From Promethearchaeota archaeon (lineage in GTDB: Archaea > Asgardarchaeota > Lokiarchaeia > Sigyniarchaeales > SOKP01), in contig JBHLOY010000002.1 in NCBI GenBank assembly GCA_048939995.1, positions 352,001-416,000 of the forward strand: a stretch of 64,000 bases of DNA, in the 5' to 3' direction. Position 1 is the first letter of the stretch. The number at the start of each line of letters is the position of its first letter. The translations under genes and the position numbers were made by a program. Shown one piece after another: positions 43,406 through 64,000 of this stretch. A model generated the notes under the pieces. That model worked only from the letters and a program-made list of their open reading frames with translations, was not told the DNA's origin and made no database searches.

Positions 43406-43499
43406 TGTTATGTTCTTTTAACAAAGTTTATGAAATATAATCATAAAGTCCTTTTAAAATCATTTCCTATACATTTTAAGAATTTTAGAAAAAAAAAAA

Positions 43500-43844: not shown

Positions 43845-45223
43845 CTGTTATCTTTATAGTTTTTATGACCTAAAATACTGTCAGCAAAAGTGAATCTATT
43901 GAATAATCCGACTGGATCCTTAATAAATTTTAAAATTTCTTCAGGATCACGCTCAGAAAATAAGGACCCTAATGTGCTTATGAATTTTATACCTTGATCA
44001 TCAACACCAACTGGAGGTCCATAACATCCCAAACAAGGGGCATTTCCTTTATTAGGACAGATAGTGCCACATCCTGCTTGAGTAACTAAACCTAAACATA
44101 TATAACCTTGCTCTAAGAAACACTTATCTGTTGTAGGTAATCCTTCATAATCTCTTTTTAAGTTAGTAGGAACTTTATCAACTATAATTCGATCGCAATG
44201 GCTACAAACTGTTTTAGAGCTAAATTTGAAATTGGGATCATTTTTCAGTTGAAGAATTATCGAGCTAATTATATTATCGTTTATTTCAATTCCCGTTGGT
44301 CTTAAATCTAATTCTTTGTTTTCCCCACTCTCTATTTCATTAAAGCTTTCAGGTTCATATGCCAAACGTTGCACTAAATCATCATAAAAGTAGAAATTTG
44401 TGATACTAGCGGATCCTAAATACAATATCAGGAAGTGCAGAAAGTTTGTTCGTGTTTCCTCATTCAATTGATCTAAACTCATAATTAATTCTAGTAGATT
44501 CTCTGCTTTCTCTCCGGGAATTTTTGTATGTCTAAAGCAACCGAAACAAATCTCACCTTTATTTGGGCACATTAATTTGCATCCTCCGGCAGTAATCGAT
44601 CCATAACATAATGTACTATTATCTAAAAAGCATCCATTATTAAACAAATCGCAATTGTCGCAGACACATCTACTTTGATTTTGTTGATTAGAACGGTCTC
44701 TAATAAAAGATTTTAAGTGCAACATTGTTGCAACAATATTTTCAGTTTTTGGGGGGCAACCTGGGACAAATATGTCCACATGAATAAGATCTTTAACGTT
44801 ATAAACATATTTCTCAATATTTGGTAAATCATTATTTTTTACATGAATTTGTTCTTCTATTGATGCTTTATTTCTTAGAAGCTCGTTTTTTTCCAAATCA
44901 TCTTTATCAATTAGATTGGCTAATCCGGGAATGCTTCCATAACATGCACAAGCTCCTAGAGATACTATAATATCACTCATTTCTCTTAATGTCTTGACAT
45001 TAGCAGTATCTTGTTCCGTCCTTATAATTCCCTCTATAATTCCAACCTTAAAATTTCCATTCTCTTTAATATTATTTTGAGCATTGTTTCCCGGCCAAAA
45101 AATGAAATCTATCTCAGGAAGAATAGGTAATAACTCAAAGTGTGCATTTAAGAGACTCTGATGACAACCCCAGCAAGAACTAAGCTGTAGATAATATACA
45201 GATAAAGCCATTTTTAAAAACAA
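43841..45223 (-). CDS. mvhG: F420-non-reducing hydrogenase small subunit-like protein with duplicated C-terminal Fe-S domain
   Basis: SCWGC, EG, GACACYGSIPGL, PGCPP, two CxxC...CFL...CxG..T.xGC...CP...CxGC blocks. Confidence 0.8.
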   Translation of the reverse strand: MFLKMALSVYYLQLSSCWGCHQSLLNAHFELLPILPEIDFIFWPGNNAQNNIKENGNFKVGIIEGIIRTEQDTANVKTLREMSDIIVSLGACACYGSIPGLANLIDKDDLEKNELLRNKASIEEQIHVKNNDLPNIEKYVYNVKDLIHVDIFVPGCPPKTENIVATMLHLKSFIRDRSNQQNQSRCVCDNCDLFNNGCFLDNSTLCYGSITAGGCKLMCPNKGEICFGCFRHTKIPGEKAENLLELIMSLDQLNEETRTNFLHFLILYLGSASITNFYFYDDLVQRLAYEPESFNEIESGENKELDLRPTGIEINDNIISSIILQLKNDPNFKFSSKTVCSHCDRIIVDKVPTNLKRDYEGLPTTDKCFLEQGYICLGLVTQAGCGTICPNKGNAPCLGCYGPPVGVDDQGIKFISTLGSLFSERDPEEILKFIKDPVGLFNRFTFADSILGHKNYKDNS

Positions 45224-45610
45224 CTATTCGTAATATTTAGCTAAATAATATAATTAAATTAGAAAAGAGTAAAATTAAAAACAGATGGTTATAAAAAAAA
45301 AGAATCTACTTATAGTAAATAGTGCTTCTTTATTTTTATATATAACTTATATTGAATCGATCCCTAAAATTGGCTAACAGTTTTATCCTGAAATTGTAGA
45401 AAGTAAGTGATTTAAATCACAATTAAAGGCAGTTGAATCTATTGAAATATAATTAAAATATAATTAATAAAAGTTATCAATATAATACCTATAGTTTGAA
45501 TCCTTAACTAAACTCCTAATCGTAATTCTTATATGAAAACGGCTTTTTTTATGAGATTGATTTAAAGAGCTAAGGTGAACAATCTTTCGATTTTTTGTTA
45601 TATAAAGTAA

Positions 45611-45686
45611 GTTTAAAATTTCAACTAATTTCAGAAAATTGTTTAAAATTAAGATATTATGATATTGAGCAGTTTAAATTTCCCAA
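45611..45686 (+). promoter_or_regulatory. Triple-box operator upstream of hdrC
   Basis: Boxes at 45611, 45641, 45672 (gtttaaaatt core); same spacing at 50651 and 59579. Confidence 0.65.
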
Positions 45687-45828
45687 TCCTATAATAACTA
45701 AAAGAAAAACTTAAATATAAGGAAAAGGTCTATTTTAGCAGACGTGAATAAAGTTAAGTCTATTCTATCTTTTCTAAATTGTTATCTTATCTAAAAAGTT
45801 TGTTAATCAGAAGGAGAATAAAAAATTA

Positions 45829-46425
45829 TTGGAGAAGAGTACAAAAATGATCGAATCTGAACCAGAAATTATTAAAGTTTTCACAGAAGATTTAGCTGAT
45901 TCCTTAAAGAATGCAGGATATCCCCAGATTGATGCATGTATTCAATGTGGAACTTGTTCTGGAGGATGTCCATCAGGAAGAAGGACAGCACTAAAAGTTA
46001 GGACAATCATAAGAAAAGTCCAATTAGGAATTGAAGAAATTCTTAACACCAATGATATTTGGTATTGTTCAACTTGTTATACTTGCCTTGAAAGATGTCC
46101 CCGTAAATTACCTATAACAGATATGCTTATTTATTTGAGAAATCTGGCAGTTCAGAAAGGTTTCATACTTGAGAGTCATCTTGATTTATGTAAGAAACTT
46201 TATAATTCAGGTCATGGAGTTCCTATAGACGATGATAAATGGAAAAAGTTAAGAAAAGCTTACGGTTTAAAACAAATTCCACCAACTGTCCACTCTAATC
46301 AAAAAGATCTAGAAGAAATCCAAATACTTCTCCATAGTGCTAAATTTGATGAATTAGTAAATCTCAAGTCTGAAAAAGATGAGGAGAACGAAGAAGAAAG
46401 ATATTATATTACTAATACCATGTAA
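45829..46425 (+). CDS. hdrC: Heterodisulfide reductase subunit C
   Basis: CIQCGTCSGGCPSGRRT, WYCSTCYTCLERCPR. Confidence 0.95.
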   Translation: MEKSTKMIESEPEIIKVFTEDLADSLKNAGYPQIDACIQCGTCSGGCPSGRRTALKVRTIIRKVQLGIEEILNTNDIWYCSTCYTCLERCPRKLPITDMLIYLRNLAVQKGFILESHLDLCKKLYNSGHGVPIDDDKWKKLRKAYGLKQIPPTVHSNQKDLEEIQILLHSAKFDELVNLKSEKDEENEEERYYITNTM

Positions 46426-46439
46426 AAGGTCATATAAGG

Positions 46440-47396
46440 ATGGGGGTAAATCGAAAATATTCACTTTTCCTTGGATGTGTTATTCCAAATCGATATCCCT
46501 TTATTGAATTAGCGACTCGTAAAGTATTTCAAAAATTGGGTATCGAATTTGTTGAAATGGATGGGGCATCTTGTTGTCCAGCTCCGGGGGTATTTCGTGG
46601 ATTTGATATAGATACTTGGTTAATTGTTGGAGCTAGAAATTTAACTATTGCTGAACAAAACAAACTTGACCTCGCTACGATGTGTAATGGTTGCTACGGA
46701 AGTCTACTTGAGGTGAATCACCAATTAAAAACTAATAAACAAAAATTAGAGATGGTTAACGAACATCTTGCTAAAATTAATCGAGAATATCACGGAAGTG
46801 TAAATGTAAAACATATCATCGAAATTCTTTATAAGGATATAGGAATTGAAAAATTAAAGAATAGAGTTAAATATGGTCGTAAGAAAGCATTAGACTTAAA
46901 CGTGGCAGTCCATTATGGTTGTCATATTCAAAAACCAGCTAGTATTCGACCATGGGGTAATGAAACAGAAAAACCGCGATTTTTAGACGAATTAGTAGAA
47001 ATTACAGGTTGTAGAAGTATAGATTATAGAGATAAAAATATGTGTTGTGGTGCAGCTGGAGCTGTCAGAAGTGCCTTTAAAGAAGTTTCATTAGATTTTA
47101 CTAGGGAGAAGTTAGAAAACATGAGGGCAGCTGGAGCAGAAGTTATCGTTACTGCTTGCCCTTTTTGTCATCTCCAATTCGATTTAGGTCAAATTGAAAT
47201 TAATAATATATTTAAAGAAAAGATCGAAGCTCCTTTTAATATTCCTGTTATTTACTATACACAATTATTAGGTCTCGCGTTAGGTTTAAACCCTGAAGAT
47301 GTTGGATTAGTAAGGGATATAGAATTGAAAGGAGTACCTCCATTCACATCGATTAAACCATTTTTAGAAAGAGTGAGTGATGAAGTTGAAGGATGA
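46440..47396 (+). CDS. hdrB: Heterodisulfide reductase subunit B
   Basis: FLGCVIPNRYP, SCCPAPG, CNGC, HYGCH, CCGA, CPFCHLQFD. Confidence 0.96.
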   Translation: MGVNRKYSLFLGCVIPNRYPFIELATRKVFQKLGIEFVEMDGASCCPAPGVFRGFDIDTWLIVGARNLTIAEQNKLDLATMCNGCYGSLLEVNHQLKTNKQKLEMVNEHLAKINREYHGSVNVKHIIEILYKDIGIEKLKNRVKYGRKKALDLNVAVHYGCHIQKPASIRPWGNETEKPRFLDELVEITGCRSIDYRDKNMCCGAAGAVRSAFKEVSLDFTREKLENMRAAGAEVIVTACPFCHLQFDLGQIEINNIFKEKIEAPFNIPVIYYTQLLGLALGLNPEDVGLVRDIELKGVPPFTSIKPFLERVSDEVEG

Positions 47397-49359
47397 GCAG
47401 AAAGTAGGTGTGTTTATTTGTCACTGTGGTAATAATATCGCAGGTGTAATAGATGTAGAGAAACTGACCGATTATGCCAAAACTTTACCTAATGTAAATG
47501 TAGCGGAAAATTATAAATTTATGTGTTCAGAAATCGGTCAAGGATTAATTCAAGAAAAAATTGAAAATGGTGAAATTGATCGCGTAATAGTAGCGGCTTG
47601 TTCACCCCGAATGCATGAATCAACTTTTAAAAAAGTTTGTGAAGATGCTGGCTTAAATCAATATTTATGCGAGATAGCAAATATTCGTGAGCAATGTAGT
47701 TGGGTAAATATGAATGATCCTAAAGGAGCTTATGAAATTGCTAAAGCACATGTTAGGATGGGTGTAGCTAAAGTTAATCAACTAAAAGCTTTGGAGAAAT
47801 TTTATGTTGATGTTGAACCTGCATGCTTAGTTGTAGGCGGAGGGATAGCAGGTATGAATGCTTCGTTAGATCTTGCCAATTTTGGTTATAAAGTTTATTT
47901 AGTTGAAAAAACTCCTACAATAGGTGGCCATATGGCACAACTAGATAAAACATTTCCAACGTTAGATTGTTCATCATGTGTTATTACACCTAAGATGTCT
48001 GAAGTAGCCAAAGCTAAAAATATTGAATTATTAACCTATTCTGAAGTTTCTGAAATTTCGGGGTACATAGGTAATTTTAATGTTAAAATAAAAAAATATC
48101 CTCACTATATTGACCAAGAAAAATGTACTGGGTGTGGAAGTTGTGCGGAGTCATGCATTGCCATAAGTCCAAATGAATTCGATATTGGTATGAAAAAAAG
48201 AAAGGCTGCATATATCCCTTTTCCTCAGGCAGTTCCAGGAAAATATACAATTGATATGGAGCATTGCATAAAATGTGGAATATGCGCTGAAATATGTCCT
48301 GTTGGAGCAGTTAATTATGATGATAAAGTAGAATATGAAGAAGTAAAAGTAGGAGCAATAGTATTAGCAACTGGCTTTGACACATATGATCCAACAATAT
48401 TAACTCAATATGGATATGGGAGTTATCCAAATGTTATTACTGGACTCCAAATGGAAAGATTATTAAGTTCTTTTGGTCCGACTGGTGGCAAAATCGAAAG
48501 ACCATCAGATTTAAAAGAACCATCAACAATTGTTTTCCTACAATGTGTAGGTAGCAGAGATTTTACTGAAAAAGGAAATAAATACTGCTCTAGAGTGTGT
48601 TGCATGTATTCAGTAAAACAAGCTCGTCTTTATAAAGAGAAGCATCCAGATTCCAAAGTTTATATTTTTTATATTGACATCCGTGCATTTGGAAAAGGTT
48701 ATGAAGAATTCTATGATTCCACTGCAAGAGATTTTCATATAAAGTATATAAGAGGAAGAATTTCTGAAGTACTTGAAGATAAAGATCATAATATTATTAT
48801 TCGTGGAGAAGATACTCTCCTTCAAAGGTTAATTGAAATTAAAGCAGATTTACTAGTTTTAGCCGTGGGACTAGAACCGCGCGTAGATTCAAATGAAGTT
48901 GCACACTTATTTAATGTTCAGAAATCAGAGGATGGATTTTTAATGGAAGCACATCCAAAATTACGTCCAGTAGAAACCCTTACAGATGGGATATTCATTG
49001 CTGGAACAGCTCAAGGTCCTAAAGATATTCCTGACACTGTTGCACAAGCTAAAGCTGCTGCTGTAGAAGCAGCTTTATTAATTAATAAAGGAAAAGTTGA
49101 GATTGATCCGATTTTTTCAATTGTATTAAGCCATAAATGCACTGGTTGCAAAAGTTGTTTGAGTTTATGTCCTTATAATGCAATTTCATTTGATGAATTT
49201 AAAAGAATTGCTGAAATTAATAAGGTTTTGTGCAAGGGATGTGGTACTTGTGTTGCTGCTTGCCCAAGTTCTGCGATTATACAAAATCAATTTGGAGATG
49301 TACAATTATTACCAATGATCCATACCGCTATTCAAAAACCAGATGAGGTGGAGGGTTGA
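47377..49359 (+). CDS. hdrA: Heterodisulfide reductase subunit A (Cys-encoded)
   Basis: CHCGNNI, ACSP..HE, REQCSW, GGGIAG, KTFPTLDCSSC, QCVGSRD, CSRVCC, ferredoxin motifs. Confidence 0.97.
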   Translation: MMKLKDEQKVGVFICHCGNNIAGVIDVEKLTDYAKTLPNVNVAENYKFMCSEIGQGLIQEKIENGEIDRVIVAACSPRMHESTFKKVCEDAGLNQYLCEIANIREQCSWVNMNDPKGAYEIAKAHVRMGVAKVNQLKALEKFYVDVEPACLVVGGGIAGMNASLDLANFGYKVYLVEKTPTIGGHMAQLDKTFPTLDCSSCVITPKMSEVAKAKNIELLTYSEVSEISGYIGNFNVKIKKYPHYIDQEKCTGCGSCAESCIAISPNEFDIGMKKRKAAYIPFPQAVPGKYTIDMEHCIKCGICAEICPVGAVNYDDKVEYEEVKVGAIVLATGFDTYDPTILTQYGYGSYPNVITGLQMERLLSSFGPTGGKIERPSDLKEPSTIVFLQCVGSRDFTEKGNKYCSRVCCMYSVKQARLYKEKHPDSKVYIFYIDIRAFGKGYEEFYDSTARDFHIKYIRGRISEVLEDKDHNIIIRGEDTLLQRLIEIKADLLVLAVGLEPRVDSNEVAHLFNVQKSEDGFLMEAHPKLRPVETLTDGIFIAGTAQGPKDIPDTVAQAKAAAVEAALLINKGKVEIDPIFSIVLSHKCTGCKSCLSLCPYNAISFDEFKRIAEINKVLCKGCGTCVAACPSSAIIQNQFGDVQLLPMIHTAIQKPDEVEG

Positions 49360-51106: not shown

Positions 51107-53179
51107 TTGAAAATGAATTTACAACCCAACGCAATTTATAATGATTATAGAGGGCAGAGTATTGATAAAGTTAAAATCATTGAGTTGTTAATCGACATAA
51201 TTGAAAATATCGATAACGATGACTTAAGAGGAGAATCTATTGAAATTTTAAACAAAATTGATATAAAACAAAATAGAGTATTTAAAATATTAGAAAATAT
51301 CTTAATTTCTGATTTAAATGAGAACTTAAGACATGCAGCAGCAAAAGTTATAATAAATAAATTTCGGAGTAAAGCATTAAAGCCTTTTTTATGGGCACTT
51401 CAACATGAATCTTGCTATAATTGCCTAATAACAGTTCTTAAATCACTCGAGCGCGTTAATGATATAAAAGTAAAAGCATTGCTTATCGATGAGATTGAGA
51501 AGATTGAATTAGAACAATTTAGAGCAAGTTTGTCAGAGTTATTTTTAAATAAATTGATCTACAACTATAAAACTAGTGATTTAGCAGATGTATTAATTAA
51601 TCATGCAACTATATTCTCCCTATTAAAAAAATTTAAAAAACTCAAATTTACAATAGAAAATGGTTTAATTATTAAGCTTGATTTCTCTAATATTGATGAT
51701 CTTGTCATTAATTGGCGTTATAGAGAATTAATTCAAGATGTCACTGATATTATTGGGATACAAAATTTAAAAAACTTGAAAGAGATTGAATTTTTCCCCC
51801 TAAATTGGGCGTTAAATAATGAGTTAACATATAATTGTAATATCGCTTTAATAGAAGCTTTAGAAAGACTTAACAACGATGTAGCTAAAATTAGCTTGAT
51901 TTCACATATAGAAAAAATTGACGATAAAAAATTCGTAAATTCAATTAATGAATTATTAGAATTATACGGTTCAATAAATAATATCTCAATTTCTAAACTT
52001 TCTGATATTTTAAGAAATTTTATTACTATTTCCTATATGAAGAAAAAAAATCCTCAATTAACATATGAAATAGATAAAGCTGAAGTTATAGATTTACATA
52101 TTGAGGGAAAGGCCATTGTTACATTACCAAGTTTTATTAAGAATTTAAGTTCGATTAAAAAACTAATTTTAAAAAATTGTAATATTTATAATCTCCCTGA
52201 AACAATTTACACTTTTAAAAATCTAGAAATTCTTAATTTAGAAGGAAATAATATCGAAATTTTACCTAAAAATATAGAACTTCTTAATTCTTTGAAGATA
52301 TTGAATCTAAACAAAAATAAATTGAGAAAGTTACCTTTTTCAATAGGAAGACTTTACAAGCTAGAGTCTTTAGAACTATCTGATAATGAAATTTCTAAAT
52401 TACCTAATTCAATAGGTTATATTTCCTCTTTAAAATACTTAGATTTAAAAGGTAATAAATTAGAAATACTTCCTGATTCCATTGGTTATATTGAGTCCTT
52501 AAAATGCTTAATTTTGAGCTCCAATAAGATAAAGATATTACCTGAGTCGATCGGTTTGCTGAGATCGCTCGAAACCCTTAACCTTGAGAAAAATTTGTTA
52601 ACAGGGCTCCCTACTACTATAAATTTATTTACCTCATTAAAATTTTTAAATTTAGAAGAGAATAAATTAAATAGTTTACCAGAGTCGTTTGGAACTCTTA
52701 AGTCACTAGAAATCTTAAGATTGGGATGGAACAAACTACAATCTTTACCTCAATCAATTTGTGAATTGGAATCAATTAGATATCTTTATATAATGAACAA
52801 TAAATTGAATAAACTTCCTAATTCAATGAACCTTCTTTCCTCACTCGAGAATTTAGATGTATCTTGGAATATTTTATCACACTTACCTGAATCTATAGGC
52901 AAATTAAAATCTTTAAAAATCTTAAAACTAAATAACAATCGATTAATAAAACTTCCAGAGACAATAGGATTTCTTCAATCATTAAAAATTTTAAACTTAG
53001 ATGAAAATAAGTTGAAAGAGATCCCAAAATCAATATCTTCCCTAACTTCTCTTGAAGAGTTATGGTTAAGTAGTAATGAATTAGAAAGTATTCCTGAACC
53101 CATTACAAATCTTTCATTGAAAAAGTTACAATTAAACAATAATAAGTTAAAAATTGCCAAAAATCCTAATTCAAATTAA
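51107..53179 (+). CDS. Leucine-rich repeat protein with N-terminal HEAT-like region
   Basis: About 15 LRRs of 23 aa (LPxSIGxLxSLxxLxLxxNxL); helical repeats at N-terminus. Confidence 0.92.
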   Translation: MKMNLQPNAIYNDYRGQSIDKVKIIELLIDIIENIDNDDLRGESIEILNKIDIKQNRVFKILENILISDLNENLRHAAAKVIINKFRSKALKPFLWALQHESCYNCLITVLKSLERVNDIKVKALLIDEIEKIELEQFRASLSELFLNKLIYNYKTSDLADVLINHATIFSLLKKFKKLKFTIENGLIIKLDFSNIDDLVINWRYRELIQDVTDIIGIQNLKNLKEIEFFPLNWALNNELTYNCNIALIEALERLNNDVAKISLISHIEKIDDKKFVNSINELLELYGSINNISISKLSDILRNFITISYMKKKNPQLTYEIDKAEVIDLHIEGKAIVTLPSFIKNLSSIKKLILKNCNIYNLPETIYTFKNLEILNLEGNNIEILPKNIELLNSLKILNLNKNKLRKLPFSIGRLYKLESLELSDNEISKLPNSIGYISSLKYLDLKGNKLEILPDSIGYIESLKCLILSSNKIKILPESIGLLRSLETLNLEKNLLTGLPTTINLFTSLKFLNLEENKLNSLPESFGTLKSLEILRLGWNKLQSLPQSICELESIRYLYIMNNKLNKLPNSMNLLSSLENLDVSWNILSHLPESIGKLKSLKILKLNNNRLIKLPETIGFLQSLKILNLDENKLKEIPKSISSLTSLEELWLSSNELESIPEPITNLSLKKLQLNNNKLKIAKNPNSN

Positions 53180-53789: not shown

Positions 53790-55154
53790 TTAATAGAATT
53801 CACAATCATTAAGAAGTTGTGAAATATCCATAACTTTTATCGGTGAGTTGTCCTCGTTTGCGACTTCAAATAAATTATTTTTACAAAAAACGCATGAACT
53901 AACAAGAACTTCAGCATTTGTTTCCATTGCTTCTTTTAAACGATCTTCCCTTATTCTTATCATACAAGCGCGAGTTTCTGCTAACCTGTCTCTTCCTATT
54001 TCACCTGCTATCTCACCATATAAAGCTTTTACTCCACCTCCAGCTCCACAACACCAGGACATATCTCTGTTATGTTTCATCTCAAATAATTTTACACCTT
54101 CAATCATATTTAGAAGTTCTCTTGGTTCTTCATAAACTCCACAATATCTACCCAGATGACATGGATCGTGATATGTTATAAGTAGAGGATCTTCTTTTGT
54201 GCGCTGTGTATATCGGATTTTTAAATTCCTTTCTTTGACAGTCTTTAATACGAATTGTGTTAAATGATAAAGATCAAATTCAAGCTTATGTCCCGCATAC
54301 TTAGTATATTCCAGAGTAAATGTGGAGAAACATCCTGAACAAGAAAATACTAATTCAGATACACCACTTTCCAAAATTGTTTTGTAATTATGTTTTACAA
54401 GCTCAATAGCTTCATCTTCCAACCCAGTTCGGAATAATACTGATCCACAACACCGTTCCTCGGGAAATAATACAAATTCAATTCCAAGTTTTGCTAAAAC
54501 CTTGCTTGTTGCAGTTACTAACTCTTTATTTCTATAGGAAGAAGTACATCCAACAAAATACCCTACTTTACCAGGTATACGTTTAGGAACTTTTAATTCA
54601 ACTTCCGCTTTTATTGAATCTAAATCCTGTTTTGCTCGTTGATATGCCTCTCTTCCTTCTTCAACAGCCTCACACCAATTAAATCTGTCCAAATGTTTTT
54701 CTAAAAATGGATTGTTATTCTCAATAATAGAATTTTTTAACACTTTTAATTTTGCAGGGACAGCTCCTTTTTTTACTACTTCTTTACGGAAGTTTTGGAA
54801 CACTTCTAAAGTATCTATTCCGACGGGGCAAACAACTTTACAGTTACCACAAAGCATACAACGAAATACAGATGGGATTATCTCTTCATTATCGAATTTA
54901 ATATCATGACTATCAAGTGCTTTAATAATCCTATTTCGCCCACCAGCATAATCAGTTTCTGACCATGAAGTGTTATAAACCTTACAAACATGTCTACAGT
55001 ATCCACAATGCGTACAGCGCTCATAGGAGTACTTTTCCTTTCTTTTACTTTTAGGTTCTATTAAATTTTCTTTTGAGGGGGATACTAAACCTGCAACTGG
55101 GGGTCCTGTGGTAACTACATTTCTTATATCTTTCTTTTCTTTGCCTTCACTCAT
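53790..55154 (-). CDS. Fe-S oxidoreductase with two ferredoxin and two CCG domains (HdrD/GlcF-like)
   Basis: CTHCGYCRHVC, CMLCGNCKVVCP, YFVGC, CCG, YHDPCHLGR, CCGAGGG. Confidence 0.9.
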   Translation of the reverse strand: MSEGKEKKDIRNVVTTGPPVAGLVSPSKENLIEPKSKRKEKYSYERCTHCGYCRHVCKVYNTSWSETDYAGGRNRIIKALDSHDIKFDNEEIIPSVFRCMLCGNCKVVCPVGIDTLEVFQNFRKEVVKKGAVPAKLKVLKNSIIENNNPFLEKHLDRFNWCEAVEEGREAYQRAKQDLDSIKAEVELKVPKRIPGKVGYFVGCTSSYRNKELVTATSKVLAKLGIEFVLFPEERCCGSVLFRTGLEDEAIELVKHNYKTILESGVSELVFSCSGCFSTFTLEYTKYAGHKLEFDLYHLTQFVLKTVKERNLKIRYTQRTKEDPLLITYHDPCHLGRYCGVYEEPRELLNMIEGVKLFEMKHNRDMSWCCGAGGGVKALYGEIAGEIGRDRLAETRACMIRIREDRLKEAMETNAEVLVSSCVFCKNNLFEVANEDNSPIKVMDISQLLNDCEFY

Positions 55155-55289: not shown

Positions 55290-56789
55290 CTAAAAAATTC
55301 TATATAAGAATTTAGCAGTATTAAATAATAATGATATTCTCCAGAATTTTAATCTAGTTTTAACTATCCGATATGAATTAAACAAATCTTTTGGATCTAA
55401 TAACTTTTTTAATATTTTACTCTTGGATACTAATTCAGGTCTATATTTAAACAAATAAAAAGTATTCACTATACCTATGGTATAAAGCCTATCCCCCTGA
55501 GTAAATGCTAGAACAGAAAGATCATGTAAGAATGCCTTTACTGTAAAGAATTCACTAGTTCTAGCAATATCAGATAAACCAAATACTTTTACTCTACTCC
55601 AACCTAAAATTCCCGAAATTGTATATAAGGCAGTTGGAAATTTATATTTCTTACTTTTCTTTAAATATTTTTGAATAAAATCTTCTAATCTTTTGTCAGC
55701 AATCCAATATTCTTGAAATATTAGATTTCTACTTGATCTTCCTATAGCCACTTCAGCATCACTAATATCACGCCACTTTTCCTTTAAATATAATTTATCT
55801 ACTGCTATTCCATTTAATTCTAAAGCATGTTTCTCAGAAAATGATACACTTTGTGATGTTACCTCAGGATCATCATAATAAACTGCCCAAACTAACCATT
55901 CTTGGTCAGGAAAATTGATATGGGAATAGGTTTCAAATTTGCGTTCTGAAATTGATATGAAAAATGGCTTATTAGTATTATTTTTGAGTTTTTGATAAAA
56001 TTCGATAGCTTCACGAATAGATTTAAAGCCATAACCAATTATTTCCAAGGAAGTTTTTAAGGTTGTAAGAGATAATTCAACCTCGGCTATAGCACCGTAG
56101 ATCCCATAAGTTCCACAAATATCATCGAGTGTTATTTGTCCTTTAGAATCCTTCGAAACAGTGATGATTTTTCCATCAGGTTGGACTAGTTTTAAATTAA
56201 GAATTGAATCTTTCATTGATCCGTATTTTAACACACCAATACCGGCAGTACCGGGGGTAGCTATAAACCCTCCAACACAAGATGTTTTAAAGCTTGTAGG
56301 ATAACATTTAGGTGCAAGACCGTAATCTGAAAGTTTTTCTATCAAATTTAACCAAGAGATACCAGCCCCTACTTTTACTGTCATATTTTCTCTATCTATA
56401 CTTTGGATCTGATTTAATCTCCTTGTGTCTATTATAACACCACCTTTCGAGGGAGTAGCTGAAGAAAAGCATGATGTCCCAGCCGCTCTTATTGTAACAG
56501 GAATTTTTCGCTCTCTACATTTCATTATTAGTTTAGAAAGATTATTAATATCAGCAGGACGGACAATTAGACTCGCAAGGTAATTCTTTTTGAATTTATA
56601 ATGGTATGATGGAAGTGAAGTAAGATCAGCAGATGCTGATTCGAGTTCATAAGGATTGGAACTAACATGATAAGACGATATAAAGTCTTTTACAACCTCT
56701 TCAAAATCACGTTTATCTTTTTCTCGTGAATCTATTATATTGGATTCATTATTCATTTCTTTAGTATTAGAATTCATTTTAAATATCAC
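55290..56789 (-). CDS. FAD-binding oxidoreductase (GlcD/D-lactate dehydrogenase family)
   Basis: IVRP, RAAGTS, VGAGI, VGGFIAT, KYGSMKD, GTYGIYGAI. Confidence 0.85.
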   Translation of the reverse strand: MIFKMNSNTKEMNNESNIIDSREKDKRDFEEVVKDFISSYHVSSNPYELESASADLTSLPSYHYKFKKNYLASLIVRPADINNLSKLIMKCRERKIPVTIRAAGTSCFSSATPSKGGVIIDTRRLNQIQSIDRENMTVKVGAGISWLNLIEKLSDYGLAPKCYPTSFKTSCVGGFIATPGTAGIGVLKYGSMKDSILNLKLVQPDGKIITVSKDSKGQITLDDICGTYGIYGAIAEVELSLTTLKTSLEIIGYGFKSIREAIEFYQKLKNNTNKPFFISISERKFETYSHINFPDQEWLVWAVYYDDPEVTSQSVSFSEKHALELNGIAVDKLYLKEKWRDISDAEVAIGRSSRNLIFQEYWIADKRLEDFIQKYLKKSKKYKFPTALYTISGILGWSRVKVFGLSDIARTSEFFTVKAFLHDLSVLAFTQGDRLYTIGIVNTFYLFKYRPELVSKSKILKKLLDPKDLFNSYRIVKTRLKFWRISLLFNTAKFLYRIF

Positions 56790-56798
56790 TTCTTTTTT

Positions 56799-57665
56799 TT
56801 AAAATAATGGAACCATTAAAAAGCCTGAAAAGAAAGCAGCCCACCAGCAAATTAAAGTAATGTAACCAGTTAATTTAGCATACTTTCGCTCTGCTGCAAT
56901 TCCAAAAAGCATACTGAAAAGTCCAGCAATTAATCCAACTCCCCCTAATATTATATGAGACCAATGGATTCCAAAGGAGAATGACGTCCAGATTGCAGGA
57001 TTAAAAATTACTAGGGAAATAACATTAATCAGGGTTAAAACCCATGAAGCACCGGCTAGAATACCGTGGATTTTCACAAATTTATTTTCATTTATCAGTA
57101 CCAGTACTGTTCCTAAAGATAATAATAATAAGGCTGATAATCCGATATACATTTCAAAATGATTAAATATTTCAATTGTCGGAGCTGGTGGGAGTATTCC
57201 ACCAATGCTAAAAGTGATCTCTATATAGTCGAAAGGAGGTGGGCTACCAGAAACTGAATTATCTCCAGCTAAGATAAGGATCACATAAGCTCCATCCTCT
57301 GAAGGAGCTGTAATATTGAAAGTGACTGTCATTGCATTTGGATTTGGATTTAAATCATCGCCAGAGTTATCTAATATTCTAGCGCTAGTAGGTGAGATAA
57401 TAAATTGATCATTCTGTTTTCCGTCTGAAGGTGCTTGAATAAACAAATCAGAACCAGTAGCAGTAATATTAAAAGAAATGTTATCTGAAGCGTTGATAGG
57501 ATTAAATGTGTTTATATTAGTTTCAATTGAATAACCTCCCGGTACTGTATGGCAATTTTCATGAGGTTGATCGATACTAGGGTAAGCATTTACATTAAGA
57601 AAAATTGAGATTAGGATAACACCAAAAAAGGCAGATATTATTACTATTGCTTTTTTATTCAACAT
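56799..57665 (-). CDS. Exported domain with HxxCH motif plus four-TM His-containing (cytochrome b-like) C-terminus
   Basis: Signal peptide, PHENCH, beta-sandwich-like region, TM His in KIHGILAG and HWSHIILG. Confidence 0.65.
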   Translation of the reverse strand: MLNKKAIVIISAFFGVILISIFLNVNAYPSIDQPHENCHTVPGGYSIETNINTFNPINASDNISFNITATGSDLFIQAPSDGKQNDQFIISPTSARILDNSGDDLNPNPNAMTVTFNITAPSEDGAYVILILAGDNSVSGSPPPFDYIEITFSIGGILPPAPTIEIFNHFEMYIGLSALLLLSLGTVLVLINENKFVKIHGILAGASWVLTLINVISLVIFNPAIWTSFSFGIHWSHIILGGVGLIAGLFSMLFGIAAERKYAKLTGYITLICWWAAFFSGFLMVPLF

Positions 57666-57829
57666 TTTTAAAAGACTATAAGAGTTTTGATCAATAAATC
57701 ATGTACTAATATTAATAAAGCTTATTTCTAAAAATTATTAGTGAATTTAAAATTTTAATGTAAAAATCGCACCTAATCTCCTTATAGTTTTTAAAAATCT
57801 TTTTTAATTTTTGAATTTTAATTCTCTTA

Positions 57830-59533
57830 ATGATATTTAATAAGAATTCCTTGAGAACTGTTATTATTTATGATTTTGTAATTATTTTAGCTGTTGTTGT
57901 CATTATCCCAAATCTATTGAACTTTTTTGATCTAAATCTAAAAATTCAAGTACTATCTTACCTCGCCAACATTCTAATTTTATTAAATATTATCATAGTA
58001 GTTATAGATTTAATCTTCTTGATGTGGAAGAGAGAAAATTATTTGTATCTAACATCATTCAATATGACTCTATCAGTTTCAATTTTTTTGCTGTTAGAGT
58101 ACTGTTTTGTGAATGGTTATTACGATTTTTTTTATGTATGGAGTTATAGTGAATTGACTTTACCACTTGTTTATAAGATTGTTGCTATATGGGCAGGAGA
58201 GGCTGGTTCAATAATGACTTGGATGGTATTTAACTCAGTAATTATTTTTGCCTATAGAATTAAAAACCAAGATAAAGAGGATACAGTTTTTCTATTATCA
58301 TGTATAGTTTCCATGATAATTTCTATTTTGTTTTTAATAATTTTATTCTCACTTAACCCTTTTAAAGTAGAGCAGCCAGTTTTGTATCCCAATGGTTTTG
58401 GACTCAGCCCTCAATTGATGTCCCCTTTTATGATTTGGCATCCTTTTTTTACATTTTTAGCATATGCCATCTTTCTAATTCCATTCACTATTAATATTAT
58501 AAATCTTATAAAACCAAAATTGTCTTTAAGAAATCCTTATCAGCAAGCATTTTATAATTTTTCATTAAAATTTGGATGGTTAGTTATTACCCTAAGTATA
58601 GGTTTAGGAGCTTATTGGGCAAAAATTACTTCCGCTTGGGGCAGATATTGGGGCTGGGACCCAGTAGAGGTTGTATCTCTTATTCCCTGGTTTTTTTGTA
58701 CTGCTTTTTTTCATTCCAGTATATTTAAAGTGAAAAATCCTAGGATTATTAAAATAAATTCCATCTTAATCTTTTTTTCAATAATATTTGCCACCTTAAT
58801 AACTAGGGGAGGAGTATTGAGTTCGCTTCACGCATTTACAGGAGGAGGAGAATTGGTTATATGGGTTTTAATTATTGGTTTTATTTTATTAGCTTTTGCG
58901 ATATATGTAATTTACGAAATTTTAAATTACTTCTTGGAAGACTATCATAAAATTAAGAGCTTTTTTGATTATTTAAGCTATCTGATTTTATTTTGCTTAT
59001 CTTTTGTTTGCATTTTTGGACTGATAATTCCTCCTCTAACTAATTTCATATCAAATTTTATCGCAATTGATTCAATAATCATTGGTCCAAACTTCTTTAT
59101 GATTAGCGCATTCATATTAGCTATAATATTGGCAATTTCGCTCATTTTTTGTTCCTTGTGGGATATCTATAACAAAAGGTGGATCATAATCACTTTATTC
59201 ATTGTATTTTTGATACAGTTGATTATTTCATTATTTTTATTTTTTCTATTTGATCTTTGGATAAATCCATTTATTGCCATCTTTTATTATGCTCTTTTTG
59301 CTTCAACCTTTCGATTAATAAAGAGAACGAATCTTCAAATGGGGTTCCAAAAGTTCTTTAGAACAAATTCAAAAACGATTATACATGGAGGAATATCACT
59401 TATTTTGATAGGGACTTTAATTGATGCCAGTTACGAAGTAATTTTAGATATTTTTTACATTTCTGGATTTGGTTTTTTACTAATTGGGATAATACCCTCT
59501 ATTTTTATGGTTTTTTTTATTAAAGCACATTGA
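57830..59533 (+). CDS. ccmF: Cytochrome c biogenesis heme lyase CcmF
   Basis: WAGEAGS, WHP, WGRYWGWDPVE (WWD domain), FFHS, SLHAF, IIHGG. Confidence 0.92.
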   Translation: MIFNKNSLRTVIIYDFVIILAVVVIIPNLLNFFDLNLKIQVLSYLANILILLNIIIVVIDLIFLMWKRENYLYLTSFNMTLSVSIFLLLEYCFVNGYYDFFYVWSYSELTLPLVYKIVAIWAGEAGSIMTWMVFNSVIIFAYRIKNQDKEDTVFLLSCIVSMIISILFLIILFSLNPFKVEQPVLYPNGFGLSPQLMSPFMIWHPFFTFLAYAIFLIPFTINIINLIKPKLSLRNPYQQAFYNFSLKFGWLVITLSIGLGAYWAKITSAWGRYWGWDPVEVVSLIPWFFCTAFFHSSIFKVKNPRIIKINSILIFFSIIFATLITRGGVLSSLHAFTGGGELVIWVLIIGFILLAFAIYVIYEILNYFLEDYHKIKSFFDYLSYLILFCLSFVCIFGLIIPPLTNFISNFIAIDSIIIGPNFFMISAFILAIILAISLIFCSLWDIYNKRWIIITLFIVFLIQLIISLFLFFLFDLWINPFIAIFYYALFASTFRLIKRTNLQMGFQKFFRTNSKTIIHGGISLILIGTLIDASYEVILDIFYISGFGFLLIGIIPSIFMVFFIKAH

Positions 59534-59578
59534 CTGAAAAAAACAGCTTAATTTCCGCCAGAATTTCTCAATATTTCG

Positions 59579-59654
59579 ATTTTTAAATTAAACTTTTTTG
59601 GGGAAATTGTTTCAGCTTGAAACTAAAAGCAAATTGATTGTTTAAATTACTCAG
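59579..59654 (+). promoter_or_regulatory. Triple-box operator upstream of the 59773-ccmA-ccmB unit
   Basis: Boxes at 59579, 59609 (palindromic gtttcagcttgaaac), 59640. Confidence 0.65.
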
Positions 59655-59772
59655 ATTAGAAAAAAGTTAAAAATTGTTAAACTTATTATAAAATTAATTA
59701 TCAAACTTTGTTAAAATCTAATTTAAAGTTTAAAAATTAGACGTAATAATAACAACTTAAATGTGAATTTTA

Positions 59773-62169
59773 ATGAAAAACAAAAAACGCAAGCTATTAT
59801 CCCTTATTATTGTTATCTGCTCTTTACTTCTATTTACTGGATTTACAATTGCTTATACAAGTTACTTTGATGATTTTAATGGAACATCTCACGGCACTTC
59901 TTGCCACTTTAGCTCTTCAACTCAAAGTAGTACGGGATATTTATCAATAGTATCAAGTTCAGGAAATACCGTAAATCCCGGTGAGAATTTTATACTATCT
60001 GTTCAAGTAAAAAGTTTCAGCGAAGCAGATGGAAAAGAACTTAAATTTGGTTTTCCTAGTGGCACTCCAGGCAGAGGAGATAATAAGCAATTTGGTTTTA
60101 ATACCACAATGGTCTCTGCAGATATAACTTCTGGAGATTCAGCGATATTTGATTTTCTAGTTAATGCACCTCTGACAGAGCAATCATATACTTTAACTGC
60201 TGATGCAATATACCGAAAGAGTGGTAGTGAGACTATATGGGCGTCTACTAATTATATAGTAACAGTCCAAACTTCCTCAGACATTTTACCCCCAGAGCTC
60301 ATCATTATCGATCCGAAAGATAATGAATACAAAAATGGCAATATATTGATTAATGCAAGTGTTATTGACAATGGAGGTTCAGGTCTTAATACAGTATGGG
60401 CAGAAATTACTAATAATAACTCTTTTAATCAAACTGTTTCAATGAATTTAAACACTGATCCATATTATAACGCTATTTGGGATTCAACTTCTGCGCTTGA
60501 TGGTCCTTATACTATAAATGTGAAAGCTAATGATGGAGCCTTTAATATTAATGATACAGAATCTGTAAATGTGATCATTGACAACACCGCGCCCTCAATT
60601 GTTTTAAATAGTGTGCTCCCAAATCCTTCAAATGGATTAACATCTATAAGAGCAATGAATTTTAGTTCAGATATCAATAATTATGGGATTAGGGCAACTA
60701 TAACAACTCCCACTGCTAACAAAATTTTCCTTGATCTAATATATCAAGGAGGAAATGAATGGAACAATACATTTACTATAACCCAAAATGGAATATATTC
60801 TGTTCAGATAAATGCAAGTGACTATTTAGGAAATATTAATATTTCATCCTCATTAAGCATTAATGGAGACATTTTAAATCCTTTTGTTGATATTACAAGT
60901 CCTGGAAATGATGGAGATACCATCGGGGGAGATACTATTATTATAAGCGGATGGGCATATGGTACAGGTACTAACATTGTAAGTTTATTTATAAACGATT
61001 CAAGATGGGGAATTACTCAGAATAAACCCCAGATTGACCCCAGCGGCACTTCTAGTGGACCATTCAGTTTTGAAAATAATAGTTATATATCTCCAGGATT
61101 TTATTGGGTTGAAGTTAACATTACAGACGCTGCTGGAAATATAAATATAAGTAAAAGATATTTCGAAGTCGTTTCGAACGATATTTTTCCACCTATCCTT
61201 GTTTTTAGCTTAATAAATCCAAATCCATCAAATGGTTTTACTAATATTACTGTTATATCAAATGAACCATTAATAGGAAATCCATTGTTAAGTATAACCA
61301 CTCCAAATAGTACTACTATTTATAGAACACTTTATCCTACGGGGGTTCCGAGAACATGGATAACCAATTATACAATTCATGAAACAGGAACTCACTTTAT
61401 ACAAGTAAATGGAACAGATCTTCATTCAAATGTGGGTTTTAAAACGGATTCATTTTATGGAGATATTGATGCACCTTGGATTACCCTTGATAATGTTTAT
61501 CCAAATCCATCCAATGGCTTAACGTTAATAACTGCTTTTAATGCAAGCTCGGATATTGATATAAATGGATTATGGGCCACAATAACAACACCTAGTAAAT
61601 CAATTTCCATTCAACTTAATTATCAAGAGAACAGTAAGTGGAATGCAACCTTCATAGTAACTGAAGATGGAACTTATTCCATCCAAGTAAATGCGACTGA
61701 TTTTGCTGGAAACACAAACATTACAGACTTAATTTATATTACTGGTGATATTAGTACTCCAATTTTATCAATAATTTCACTTCCAATTGAGAGTGGGGTT
61801 AATGCTCCAAACTTTTCTATCTCCATAACAGAGCCAAATTTAGATGGCATATGGTATTCACTATATAATGGCATTTACTGGTCTCAAAATATCACTATTA
61901 TTGGATTTAATGGGACTTTAGAGCAATCTTTATGGGATACCATGCCTACAGGGGATATCTTAATTAGGTTTTATGCAAATGATACGTTAGGACACATAGG
62001 ATATATAGATATTACTATTAGTAAAAATATACCCCAGACGAATATCAATCCTGGGGAAGGAACAGTATCAGGATTCGATTTAGGTATAATAATCGCAACG
62101 ACTTCAGCGATTCCACTTATATTTATAATTCTATGGCTAAAATCAAGGACAAAAAGATTTATTCGATAA
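59773..62169 (+). CDS. Membrane-anchored surface protein with Ig-like repeats and N-terminal HxxxCH motif
   Basis: Signal peptide, HGTSCH, repeated D..xP...PNPSNG...NATDxAGN modules, C-terminal TM. Confidence 0.8.
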   Translation: MKNKKRKLLSLIIVICSLLLFTGFTIAYTSYFDDFNGTSHGTSCHFSSSTQSSTGYLSIVSSSGNTVNPGENFILSVQVKSFSEADGKELKFGFPSGTPGRGDNKQFGFNTTMVSADITSGDSAIFDFLVNAPLTEQSYTLTADAIYRKSGSETIWASTNYIVTVQTSSDILPPELIIIDPKDNEYKNGNILINASVIDNGGSGLNTVWAEITNNNSFNQTVSMNLNTDPYYNAIWDSTSALDGPYTINVKANDGAFNINDTESVNVIIDNTAPSIVLNSVLPNPSNGLTSIRAMNFSSDINNYGIRATITTPTANKIFLDLIYQGGNEWNNTFTITQNGIYSVQINASDYLGNINISSSLSINGDILNPFVDITSPGNDGDTIGGDTIIISGWAYGTGTNIVSLFINDSRWGITQNKPQIDPSGTSSGPFSFENNSYISPGFYWVEVNITDAAGNINISKRYFEVVSNDIFPPILVFSLINPNPSNGFTNITVISNEPLIGNPLLSITTPNSTTIYRTLYPTGVPRTWITNYTIHETGTHFIQVNGTDLHSNVGFKTDSFYGDIDAPWITLDNVYPNPSNGLTLITAFNASSDIDINGLWATITTPSKSISIQLNYQENSKWNATFIVTEDGTYSIQVNATDFAGNTNITDLIYITGDISTPILSIISLPIESGVNAPNFSISITEPNLDGIWYSLYNGIYWSQNITIIGFNGTLEQSLWDTMPTGDILIRFYANDTLGHIGYIDITISKNIPQTNINPGEGTVSGFDLGIIIATTSAIPLIFIILWLKSRTKRFIR

Positions 62170-62258: not shown

Positions 62259-62981
62259 TTGAAGAATTTGGCTATTAAAAATAAAGAAATCATCAATTGT
62301 AAAAATGTTTCAAAGCAATTTGGATATTTCTTTGCATTAAAAGATATTTCATTCAAAGTAATAGCAAATACTATCTTTGGGATTGCAGGAGCAAATGGAG
62401 CAGGTAAAACAACACTGATTAAGATTTTATCTGGATTAATGAATCCTTCTTCTGGAAAAGTATACATTCAAGGTAATAATTATACTGAAAATCCGTTTTT
62501 GATTAAGGAAATGATAGGAATTAATACTGAGGAATCTTTTCTTTATGAGGAGTTGACTATTAATGAAAATCTAGAGTTTTATGATAATCTTCATTACAAC
62601 TTCAATAAAAGTCAGATAAGAAATAAAGTAGAAAACTATGCAGAATTATTTGAAATTCACGATTGGTTAGATGAACCCATTCGGAATTTATCTCATGGAA
62701 TGAAACAAAAAGTTGAAATAATTAGAGTTTTAATGCATGAGCCTTCAATATTGTTCTTAGATGAACCCTTTTCAGGTTTAGACTTTAAAGCAACTAAATT
62801 ATTAATAAATTTACTTCAGAATTTAAAAAAAGGAAAAAATGTAACAATAATACTAACTACTCATAAAATTGATGTATTATCAAAAATCTATGATGATTTA
62901 ATCATTTTAAAAAAGGGAAAAATCAACAAATTCATTACAAAAGAAACTTATGAAGAATTTGAAATAGAATCATATTTTTGA
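62259..62981 (+). CDS. ccmA: ABC ATPase, heme exporter CcmA-like
   Basis: GANGAGKTT, LSHGMKQK, LDEPFSGLD, TTH; directly upstream of ccmB. Confidence 0.82.
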   Translation: MKNLAIKNKEIINCKNVSKQFGYFFALKDISFKVIANTIFGIAGANGAGKTTLIKILSGLMNPSSGKVYIQGNNYTENPFLIKEMIGINTEESFLYEELTINENLEFYDNLHYNFNKSQIRNKVENYAELFEIHDWLDEPIRNLSHGMKQKVEIIRVLMHEPSILFLDEPFSGLDFKATKLLINLLQNLKKGKNVTIILTTHKIDVLSKIYDDLIILKKGKINKFITKETYEEFEIESYF

Positions 62982-62990: not shown

Positions 62991-63707
62991 ATGGAGATAA
63001 AATTTAAAGATAGAATTAAGTTATTCTTTTCTATATTAAGAAAAGATTTAAAATCTGAAATCCGTCAAATAAACGATATATTTTCAATATTTCTTTTTGA
63101 TGTTATATCTATTTTTATATTTTCATCAGTATATAGCTTCAGTACACAATATCAACAGATCCCGCTTGAAATATTTATAATTGAGGTCTGGTTAATAATT
63201 TTTTTTACTCTTATTTTTATAATGGCTAAATTATTCATTAAAGAAAAAGAATCTGGAACCTTAGGAGGATTAATTTCTTCGCCAATTTCAGCCAACACAA
63301 TAATATTTAGTAAGGTAATTTTTTGTTTTATTCTATTGAGCTTTATCGAAATCATTCTTTTTCTCTTTAGTTTCTTTATTTCTAATCCTTTAATACCCAA
63401 TTTACAATTTAATAATGTGATAAATTATATACTCTTAGGGATTATTTTACCAACATTAGATTTATCAATCTGTGGGACAATAGTATCAGCAATTTCTATG
63501 TATGCTAAGAAAAAATCTTTTATTATACCACTTATCCTATTTCCGATAATATTGCCAATAACAATCCCAATAATATCGATTAATATTAAATTGTTAGAAT
63601 TAGCTGCGTTTCTTGAATTAACTTATGAAATTTTATTTTTAGTTTCACATATTATTCTTATGACTTCAATATTAGCTTTAGTTTCTCAAAATCTTCTTTT
63701 TGATTGA
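62991..63707 (+). CDS. ccmB: Heme exporter permease CcmB
   Basis: LRKDLKSEIR, EKESGTLGGL, PLILFPIILP; six TM. Confidence 0.85.
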   Translation: MEIKFKDRIKLFFSILRKDLKSEIRQINDIFSIFLFDVISIFIFSSVYSFSTQYQQIPLEIFIIEVWLIIFFTLIFIMAKLFIKEKESGTLGGLISSPISANTIIFSKVIFCFILLSFIEIILFLFSFFISNPLIPNLQFNNVINYILLGIILPTLDLSICGTIVSAISMYAKKKSFIIPLILFPIILPITIPIISINIKLLELAAFLELTYEILFLVSHIILMTSILALVSQNLLFD

Positions 63708-63710: not shown

Positions 63711-64000
63711 TTAGCTACACTGAATGAGAATTTGGCTTGCTTTTAAAATCAACGTAATGTTGAATTGACCTGCAACCACTATTTCAATTCCATTTTTTAG
63801 TTCGCTTGGTACAGTAATTTGAGAAACATCGATTAAAATTGTATCATCATTCTCTGTCAAATTAAAGTTGCCCCCTGAAAAGCCTTCTACAATCCCAATT
63901 ACTTGAATTTCAAGATTATCATATTCTGTAGGATTGGAAACAACCTGAGAAACCCTAAGATATGGTCGTATATTAATAACTACTAATATAATAATAAGAA
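63711..64000 (-). CDS. ccmE: Heme chaperone CcmE-like protein (5' end outside window)
   Basis: Manual translation: ...IILVVINIRPYLRVSQVV...IQVIGIV...FNLTE...VPSELKNGIEIVVAGQF...KASQILIQCS*; OB-fold pattern of CcmE; not in the ORF track. Confidence 0.75.
   Translation of the reverse strand, partial: LIIILVVINIRPYLRVSQVVSNPTEYDNLEIQVIGIVEGFSGGNFNLTENDDTILIDVSQITVPSELKNGIEIVVAGQFNITLILKASQILIQCS

Follow-up and report, generated by a model that had tools for sequence, protein, structure and literature searches.

It has been reported that the archaeal cytochrome c maturation (Ccm) system, a form of System I, is sufficient for maturation with CcmABCEF alone, and that all archaea share the CxxxY motif of CcmE, which is required to bind haem (PMC9084895). 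Cytochromes c that bear a single cysteine have been described in Euglenozoa, whose mitochondrial cytochromes c and c1 read (A/F)xxCH (PMC8262978). The present analysis concerns a ccm locus in a 64,000-nucleotide stretch of DNA, hereafter the window, from a Promethearchaeota archaeon of the Lokiarchaeia (contig JBHLOY010000002.1, positions 352,001 to 416,000; window G+C 30%; source genome 3.75 Mb, 98% complete). In this locus, ccmF is flanked by the genes of two exported proteins, HCH288 and HCH798, and a third such protein, HCH217, is encoded nearby; at the place where a haem attachment site would be expected, these proteins read H-x2-C-H or H-x3-C-H. They are probably exported mono-haem c-type cytochromes of an undescribed family, built on a beta-sandwich related to the choice-of-anchor V and Reeler domains. 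To judge from the comparisons below, it is reasonably likely that they carry covalent haem on a single Cys, attached by a co-evolved Ccm system. The features of the locus within the window are as follows.

56799..57665, minus strand: HCH288, 288 amino acids (aa), with a signal or anchor, a beta-sandwich of about 150 aa bearing PHENCH, and a C-terminal four-helix membrane bundle (translation, alignment).
57549..57566, minus strand: PHENCH, residues 34-39 of HCH288, candidate haem attachment site (translation; column conserved in the family).
57830..59533, plus strand: CcmF, 567 aa (PF01578, E=2.9e-24; TIGR00353, E=2e-41).
59773..62169, plus strand: HCH798, 798 aa, with a signal peptide, a SHGTSCH domain, about five immunoglobulin (Ig)-like repeats, a C-terminal transmembrane anchor and a basic tail (translation; Pfam Big_13, Big_7, PKD).
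59887..59907, plus strand: SHGTSCH, residues 39-45 of HCH798, candidate haem attachment site (translation; alignment).
62259..62981, plus strand: CcmA-like ABC ATPase (PF00005, 2.1e-31; position beside CcmB conserved).
62991..63707, plus strand: CcmB permease (PF03379, 1.3e-11).
63711..64000, minus strand: CcmE, the C-terminal 95 of 112 aa in the window, the gene extending to 64049 (PF03100, 1.1e-6).

Past the window end lie ccmC and the gene of HCH217 (217 aa), the latter 1.1 kb beyond the window. An earlier note, made from the letters of the window, had reported two exported, membrane-anchored proteins on either side of ccmF with PHENCH and SHGTSCH motifs and no CxxCH; translation confirmed this, and CxxCH was absent from HCH288 and HCH798 in a motif listing of the ORFs (open reading frames) of the whole genome. 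The N-terminus of HCH288 reads MLNKKAIVIISAFFGVILISIFLNVNA followed by YPSIDQPHENCH, the signal part ending in NVNA, and that of HCH798 reads ...TIA followed by YTSYFDDFNGTSHGTSCH; HCH217 has the motif GGSHAGCH and a Loki-CTERM-like C-terminal tail. All three paralogs begin with a basic and hydrophobic signal with A-x-A-like sites, as expected of exported proteins. HCH288 and HCH798 combine an N-terminal signal or anchor with C-terminal transmembrane segments, and C-terminal tails match the Loki-CTERM and Heimdall-CTERM models. Cysteines are sparse (residues 38 and 273 of HCH288, residues 16 and 44 of HCH798), and of the Cys-Xn-Cys-His signature of a c-type cytochrome the Cys-His half alone is present, within H-x2-C-H or H-x3-C-H.

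The chance expectation for this motif was estimated genome-wide from ORFs that reach 100 aa or more and begin with a signal-like stretch, 328 in number: 0.07 exported proteins would be expected to have H-x(2,3)-C-H within residues 25-60, and three were observed. These three are the sole exported ORFs with any Cys-His pair in that interval, and all of them lie within 9 kb. They share an N-terminal domain of about 150 aa (HCH798 against profile A1, E=1.5e-62), which a profile search found three times in the genome and nowhere else. When the three paralogs are aligned with four homologs that are 66-71% identical to HCH217, the H, C and H of the motif do not vary.

A profile search of 1.84 billion representative proteins yielded 164 relatives of the domain, and the motif was surveyed in 183 non-identical family members that cover the site. 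The Cys-His pair occurs at the aligned site in 177 members and C-x-H in four, and the other two comprise one that reads SCGDHDENH and one spurious profile match. The upstream residue is His in 124 members (x2 spacing in 82, x3 in 24, x4 in 15 and x5-6 in three) and Cys in 41 (CxxCH in 13, Cx4CH in 16, CxCH in 10 and Cx5CH in two). It stands at a fixed distance from a preceding F-x-G and is followed by a loop of variable length that leads to the Cys-His pair. On a tree computed from the sandwich only, with the motif columns excluded, His and Cys interchange at least eight times, compared with a mean of 37 for shuffled labels. Several Cys-type members are nested among His-type ones (P0023, P0044, P0067, P0074 and P0098), most of them from short Logan contigs. 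Thus, when the homologs were checked for conservation of H..CH or its alternation with CxxCH, as the earlier note had proposed, the Cys-His pair was found to be kept and the upstream His to alternate with Cys at the same column. Separately, the domain members in two genomes of family f16 (G235 and G181; loci L032 and L033, respectively) read WRPxxxGxCH, with neither His nor Cys upstream; these genomes have a CcmF-like ORF and no Pfam CcmE match.

The domain also travels with the ccm genes. CcmE was found in 29 of the 154 genomes of the window's taxonomic order, and the domain is present in all 29. A domain match without a CcmE match occurs in seven genomes of the order, one of which has CcmF at a contig end, while four have partial matches that miss the motif and two are real exceptions. 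In family f9, CcmE is found in 12 of the 14 domain-positive genomes, and the remaining two have CcmF and CcmC. Within the genus, the distribution is patchy (10 of 41 genomes). The gene order conserved in family f1 comprises an HdrD-like gene, a GlcD-like gene and HCH288; a divergent set of CcmF, the stalk protein, CcmA and CcmB; and a convergent set of CcmE, CcmC and HCH217. The order of the GlcD-like gene and HCH288 is kept in every fetched f1 locus that spans that side and in six of the seven fetched f9 loci. The HCH288 homologs of f9 read Cx4CH and still have the GlcD-like and HdrD-like genes as partners; some 10 kb separate them from a canonical ccm set, among whose genes is one for a 7xCxxCH cytochrome.

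These data bear on the possibility that H-x(n)-C-H is a copper, zinc or iron site, or a non-haem redox Cys-His pair, in surface metal-binding or adhesin proteins whose genes happen to lie within a redox island. Metal sites are classically built from His and Cys, and both the variable spacing and the lack of a conserved distal haem ligand would suit such a site, as would the generic Ig-like sandwich, which is like that of many adhesins and metallochaperones. However, this explanation is unlikely, as it leaves unexplained both the strict co-occurrence and interleaving with ccm and the repeated interchange with CxxCH and Cx4CH. Moreover, it would leave an intact, conserved Ccm system without a client, and an adjacent Cys-His is a signature of haem c and not of known copper or zinc sites.

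CcmA, B, C, E and F are all encoded in this one locus. CcmH was not found (no PF03918 match in the 98%-complete genome; CcmD and CcmI were not searched for). CcmF has the WWD motif WGRYWGWDPVE, and its His 204, 295, 334 and 519 are invariant in an alignment across families f1, f9 and f20; their spacing presumably matches that of H173/H261/H303/H491 of E. coli. The window CcmF lacks an insert of about 95 aa near the C-terminus that the CcmF of f9 and f20 carries and that is presumed to be extracytoplasmic. CcmC retains, by eye, the HV..AW, W.W.DPR and LHP motifs. CcmE ends in ...QILIQCS followed by the stop codon, so that the Cys of CxxxY is kept and the Tyr is missing; wherever the 3' end of an f1 ortholog is complete, the protein likewise terminates in QCS, or in one case QCST, and the CcmE of f9 and f20 has the archaeal QCPSKY. 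The type of CcmE follows the type of client, QCS-stop occurring with His-type proteins (f1) and QCPSKY with Cys-type proteins and 7xCxxCH cytochromes (f9). Because only two clades were sampled, this tracking is suggestive rather than statistical. Besides these, a second, divergent CcmE-like ORF ending in ...YEILTYCCDRS(T/G)GV was observed in two genomes (L086:2395-2664(+) in G332 and L094:856-1149(-) in G228), and G332 also has two tandem CcmF paralogs.

Judged by its retained motifs, the Ccm set is remodelled rather than broken. It could be argued that the locus is a decaying, non-working relic of a cytochrome system, from which the first Cys and the CcmE tail are gone: the classical motif, the CcmE Tyr and a CcmF domain have all been lost, and the locus is patchy in the genus. 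Such decay is highly improbable, however, given that two genera, with 29 genomes between them, keep the altered states together with open frames, synteny, the catalytic His residues and WWD, and that the upstream His is conserved and not random. Another explanation is that the motif proteins are not substrates but maturation accessories that stand in for CcmH, CcmI or CcmG and would keep haem or the apoprotein at CcmF. The interleaving of their genes with ccm would agree with this, as would the failure to find CcmH, which is likewise membrane-anchored with an N-terminal Cys motif. On the other hand, the genome would then hold no substrate, the three paralogs differ greatly in architecture and include a stalk protein of 800 to 1500 aa, and in f9 a distance of 10 kb separates ccm from the relatives of HCH288, which share an operon with dehydrogenase genes. 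Archaeal CcmABCEF also requires no such factor (PMC9084895), and an accessory role is therefore improbable.

Other clients of the Ccm system were sought by listing all genome ORFs with CxnC[HK]. CxxCH occurs in 37 ORFs, none with more than two copies. Three anchored CxxCH ORFs were considered and rejected as clients, namely two BNR proteins, in which the motif belongs to a cytoplasmic zinc ribbon, and one solute-binding protein. By this motif listing, no further ORF of the genome is a credible cytochrome c.

HemB, HemC and a true AhbD were not found in the genome, and ALAD/HemB was not found in any of 42 Asgard genomes (G000 and 41 relatives; loci L058-L065). The HemB-negative genomes include members of f9, f20 and f24 that have multihaem cytochromes with six to eight CxxCH motifs beside canonical ccm. 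Since HemB is equally absent there, the gap in haem synthesis discriminates between no readings, and haem synthesis was dropped as a discriminator. If the organism makes no haem, haem would have to be scavenged, and the whole group appears to consist of auxotrophs that scavenge haem and still make cytochromes c.

Such a way of life brings up the idea that the motif proteins form a haem-capture relay like the NEAT-domain Isd system of Gram-positive bacteria, which would bind haem non-covalently through His or Cys and use ccm for haem trafficking. The lack of HemB in the genome and its 41 relatives is consistent with this, and so is the presentation of one domain at three heights (membrane-fused, short-anchored and on a long stalk), as well as a stalk without cofactor sites, which suits capture better than conduction. 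However, Ccm is known only for outward haem delivery and ligation (PMC9084895), and covalent attachment is indicated by those relatives that read CxxCH and have multihaem cytochromes and a canonical Ccm set as neighbours. In addition, the operon with GlcD-like and HdrD-like genes points to electron transfer. NEAT domains use YxxxY and not Cys-His; no NEAT chain was among the 50 matches listed per fold search and there was no Pfam match, although absence from such a list excludes nothing. A haem relay is thus quite unlikely.

None of these alternatives accounts at once for the swapping with CxxCH, the strict association with an intact Ccm system and the lack of any other client. The earlier note had suggested that the proteins may be non-canonical c-type cytochromes that are invisible to CxxCH searches. 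Given the alternation of upstream His and Cys, the travel of the domain with Ccm and the lack of another client, this is the best available reading; what we infer from the motif, its conservation and alternation, the synteny, the co-occurrence and the missing clients is covalent haem and its chemistry.

In the proposed mechanism, haem would be passed from CcmC to CcmE and on to CcmF, with CcmAB in their usual System I role. CcmF would then link the haem by a single thioether to the cysteine in the invariant Cys-His pair (Cys38 in HCH288), and the adjacent His (His39) would be the proximal iron ligand. The upstream His would occupy the position of the first haem-binding Cys of the relatives. 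By cytochrome c geometry, at x2 spacing it should lie at the haem edge beside the 2-vinyl group and not over the iron. It may be unbonded, may help to release CcmE, or may form a His-vinyl bond of the kind made by His130 of bacterial CcmE, which binds haem covalently. Such a bond, together with the Cys thioether, would constitute a mixed linkage made by the co-evolved QCS-type CcmE and short CcmF; this outcome is doubtful, and to our knowledge a mixed His link and Cys thioether has never been described in a cytochrome c. If it existed, the QCS-type CcmE and short CcmF could avoid the trapped CcmE-haem-apoprotein intermediate that E. coli forms with single-Cys substrates. In either case, the Ccm system would have co-evolved with its clients, with CcmE cut to ...QCS without the Tyr ligand, CcmF shortened and CcmH missing.

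Several observations weigh against reading the three proteins as cytochromes c. Neither His nor Cys is present upstream in 13 of the 183 family members, and anything from 2 to 6-7 residues separates the His from the Cys-His pair, so the upstream His is no strict requirement. A conserved ligand on the distal side (Met or a second His) was not found; mature HCH217 contains no Met, and its only His are His41, His45 and His160, the last of them not conserved. In fold, the domain is a generic sandwich of the Ig-like kind that matches MG domains at Z about 9, and its sequence matches no solved cytochrome. The two exceptional genomes, G371 and G378, carry an HCH288-like ORF and have no CcmE, CcmF or CcmC match. 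HemB, HemC and a true AhbD are missing, a point that applies equally to relatives with genuine multihaem cytochromes. Finally, the E. coli Ccm system is very poor on single-cysteine apocytochromes and traps a CcmE-haem-cytochrome complex (PMC3268396), and it is for this reason that the changes in CcmE and CcmF are of particular interest here. As to the exceptional genomes themselves (completeness 93% and 78%, respectively), the ORF of G371 (L096:1201-2115(-)) reads NDNCH and that of G378 lies at G378:C77:9456-10004.

The kinship of the domain was examined by profile and fold searches. The NCBIfam model NF041895 (choice-of-anchor V) is matched by 28 of the 56 members of the family alignment. 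Its curated cut-off is 42 bits, and HCH217 (21-22 bits) and HCH798 (16-21 bits) are not members by that rule; among the relatives, P0023 scores 39.6 bits and P0142, the sole family member above the cut-off, 89.3 bits. Bacterial choice-of-anchor V proteins read G-C-G-G-G-x-C-H just after the signal peptide (P0142 and P0155-P0160), several of them bear sorting tails of the type IX secretion system (T9SS), and P0160 passes the Pfam Reeler cut-off. The bacterial members of NF041895 in general are surface proteins with T9SS, MYXO-CTERM and similar tails. On the basis of the NF041895 matches and the CXnCH near the mature N-terminus of bacterial members, the window proteins are assigned to a distant archaeal branch of the choice-of-anchor V (Reeler-like) exported domain, and the bacterial domain may itself be a mono-haem cytochrome domain. 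A literature search found nothing on the function of choice-of-anchor V and nothing for the motif 'HXXCH'. In eukaryotes, SDR2/FRRS1 pairs a reeler domain of unknown function with cytochrome b561 (PMC10691727), which is a parallel and not evidence.

An AlphaFold model of the domain is a confident Ig-like beta-sandwich with a predicted local distance difference test score (pLDDT) of 89, and its best matches in a fold search are generic. The family profile, searched against the sequences of the PDB, gave no cytochrome match, and matched F1 capsule antigen only at chance level. Kinship with cytochrome f was considered and is not claimed: the VIA-align Z scores of 7.3 (2jxm_B) and 7.1 (4ogq_C) are in the background range, and the Foldseek E value of 2.6e-3 is accompanied by no hidden Markov model match to any PDB cytochrome chain and no other sequence signal.

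The membrane paralog HCH288 connects the domain to two further enzymes, whose genes precede it in window coordinates.

53790..55154, minus strand: cytoplasmic Fe-S protein of the HdrD/GlcF type, carrying 2x[4Fe-4S] and two CCG domains (Pfam CCG, 1.2e-32; Fer4_8, 7.3e-12).
55290..56789, minus strand: GlcD-like oxidoreductase that binds flavin adenine dinucleotide (FAD) (Pfam FAD_binding_4, 3.7e-34).

The GlcD-like gene begins 9 nt past the stop codon of HCH288, and the HdrD-like gene is the last of this conserved trio, its synteny with HCH288 extending over families f1 and f9. In the bundle of HCH288, His47 and His84 (bundle numbering) are invariant within KIHG and SHIILG motifs in the A3 alignment, and one more His is near-invariant. 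The AlphaFold2 model of the bundle has a pLDDT of 83.6. Neither Pfam (DUF420, E=0.14), the fold search (generic four-helix bundles only, Z at most 12.2) nor Atlas (a cytochrome b561 lead of 0.77, below trust level) gave anything specific for the bundle family.

The conserved operon of candidate membrane cytochrome, GlcD-like and HdrD-like genes suggests that the likely function of the locus is electron export. HCH288 would span the membrane and connect a haem on its outer face with two enzymes in the cytoplasm, the GlcD-like FAD enzyme and the HdrD-like Fe-S enzyme, and the anchored and stalked paralogs would act as surface redox partners. The earlier note had seen a hint of extracellular electron transfer in the position of the HCH798 site on an Ig-like stalk. 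The Ig-like stalk itself was found (about 600 aa), but with no Cys, almost no His and no cofactor sites it can display haem and cannot conduct electrons, so the argument is weak as stated; the operon of HCH288 with the GlcD-like FAD enzyme and HdrD-like Fe-S protein is better support for a redox role.

The genomic surroundings were also surveyed. AsnC-type regulators, [NiFe] hydrogenase and HdrBC-like genes flank the f1 locus. In the source genome, a hydrogenase/heterodisulfide-reductase island surrounds ccm (window 37454-49359 and L001:2976-7262), with genes for HypF, HdrA-like, HdrB-like and HdrC-like proteins, a polyferredoxin and two Mvh-like [NiFe] hydrogenase small subunits; one [NiFe] hydrogenase large subunit was identified, in L001, past the window end. 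An AsnC-type helix-turn-helix protein of 187 aa with the Cys-rich C-terminus CGNVCKNCAAYLDGKCNGCGNF is encoded 2.2 kb beyond the window (L001:2206-2769(+)). One or two such 187-aa proteins flank the HCH217 paralog in most f1 loci and may regulate the locus in response to redox state or metals. Two other genes of the window encode surface or repeat proteins: a giant surface protein with four Laminin_G_3 domains and DUF2341 (4931-13960(+), an ORF of 3009 aa), and a 690-aa leucine-rich-repeat protein two genes upstream of the HdrD/GlcD/HCH288 trio (51107-53179(+)), of a kind that is common in Asgard genomes.

Surveys of cytochromes c and extracellular electron transfer count CxxCH, and these archaea therefore score as cytochrome-free. 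No known group is more closely related to eukaryotes than the Asgard archaea. Should the His-type proteins bear haem, a branch of this group would possess redox proteins at its surface that might serve the exchange of electrons between syntrophic partners on which models of eukaryogenesis centre, and a mixed linkage, if real, would define a hidden class of surface cytochromes in Loki-type Asgard archaea for electron exchange with syntrophic partners. System I would prove adaptable to single-Cys clients that the E. coli system cannot process, and the Tyr ligand of CcmE, thought to be universal, would be dispensable. Moreover, the choice-of-anchor V domain, uncharacterised in bacteria, would gain a testable function as a mono-haem cytochrome. 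Whole Asgard lineages, in addition, appear to retain Ccm without haem synthesis.

Compared with known systems, the maturation machinery most resembles that of Methanosarcina acetivorans (PMC9084895), with which it shares CcmA, B, C, E and F, no CcmH found, Cys and not His in CcmE, and a CcmF with WWD and four His. In contrast, the window CcmE stops two residues past its Cys, without the Tyr, the window CcmF lacks the C-terminal insert of about 95 aa, and the sole candidate clients have His for the first Cys. The clients resemble the Euglenozoa cytochromes (PMC8262978) in having one Cys-His pair with the first Cys replaced, so that a single thioether would be expected. They differ in being beta-sandwiches and not class I cytochromes c, in a conserved His in place of Ala or Phe, and in their maturation, which would involve a Ccm variant here and is kinetoplastid-specific there.

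With NF041895 and Reeler (PF02014), the proteins share an exported N-terminal beta-sandwich of about 150 aa and a W/F-x-AP-x3-G-x-Y block, whereas H-x2-3-C-H stands in place of the bacterial G-C-G-G-G-x-C-H. The layout recalls that of cytochrome f, with a putative haem site near the mature N-terminus (a Tyr-Pro start in both), a beta-sandwich and a C-terminal anchor, and the structural alignments begin at model residues 29-31, upstream of the motif (41-45). However, as the fold match is at background level and the sequences show no similarity, the likeness is one of layout and does not establish kinship.

At the level of the whole operon, the closest parallels are the Tmc, Hmc and DsrMK complexes of sulfate reducers and HdrDE of Methanosarcina, in which a periplasmic cytochrome c and a membrane cytochrome b are combined with an HdrD-like CCG protein. 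The window shares with them an outward haem domain, here a candidate one, a His-bearing membrane bundle and a co-encoded cytoplasmic CCG/[4Fe-4S] protein. Unlike them, the haem b of HCH288 is putative, the bundle having two invariant His only and generic fold matches, and the partners include a GlcD-like FAD enzyme; furthermore, the predicted c-type domain and the membrane bundle of the window are joined in one polypeptide.

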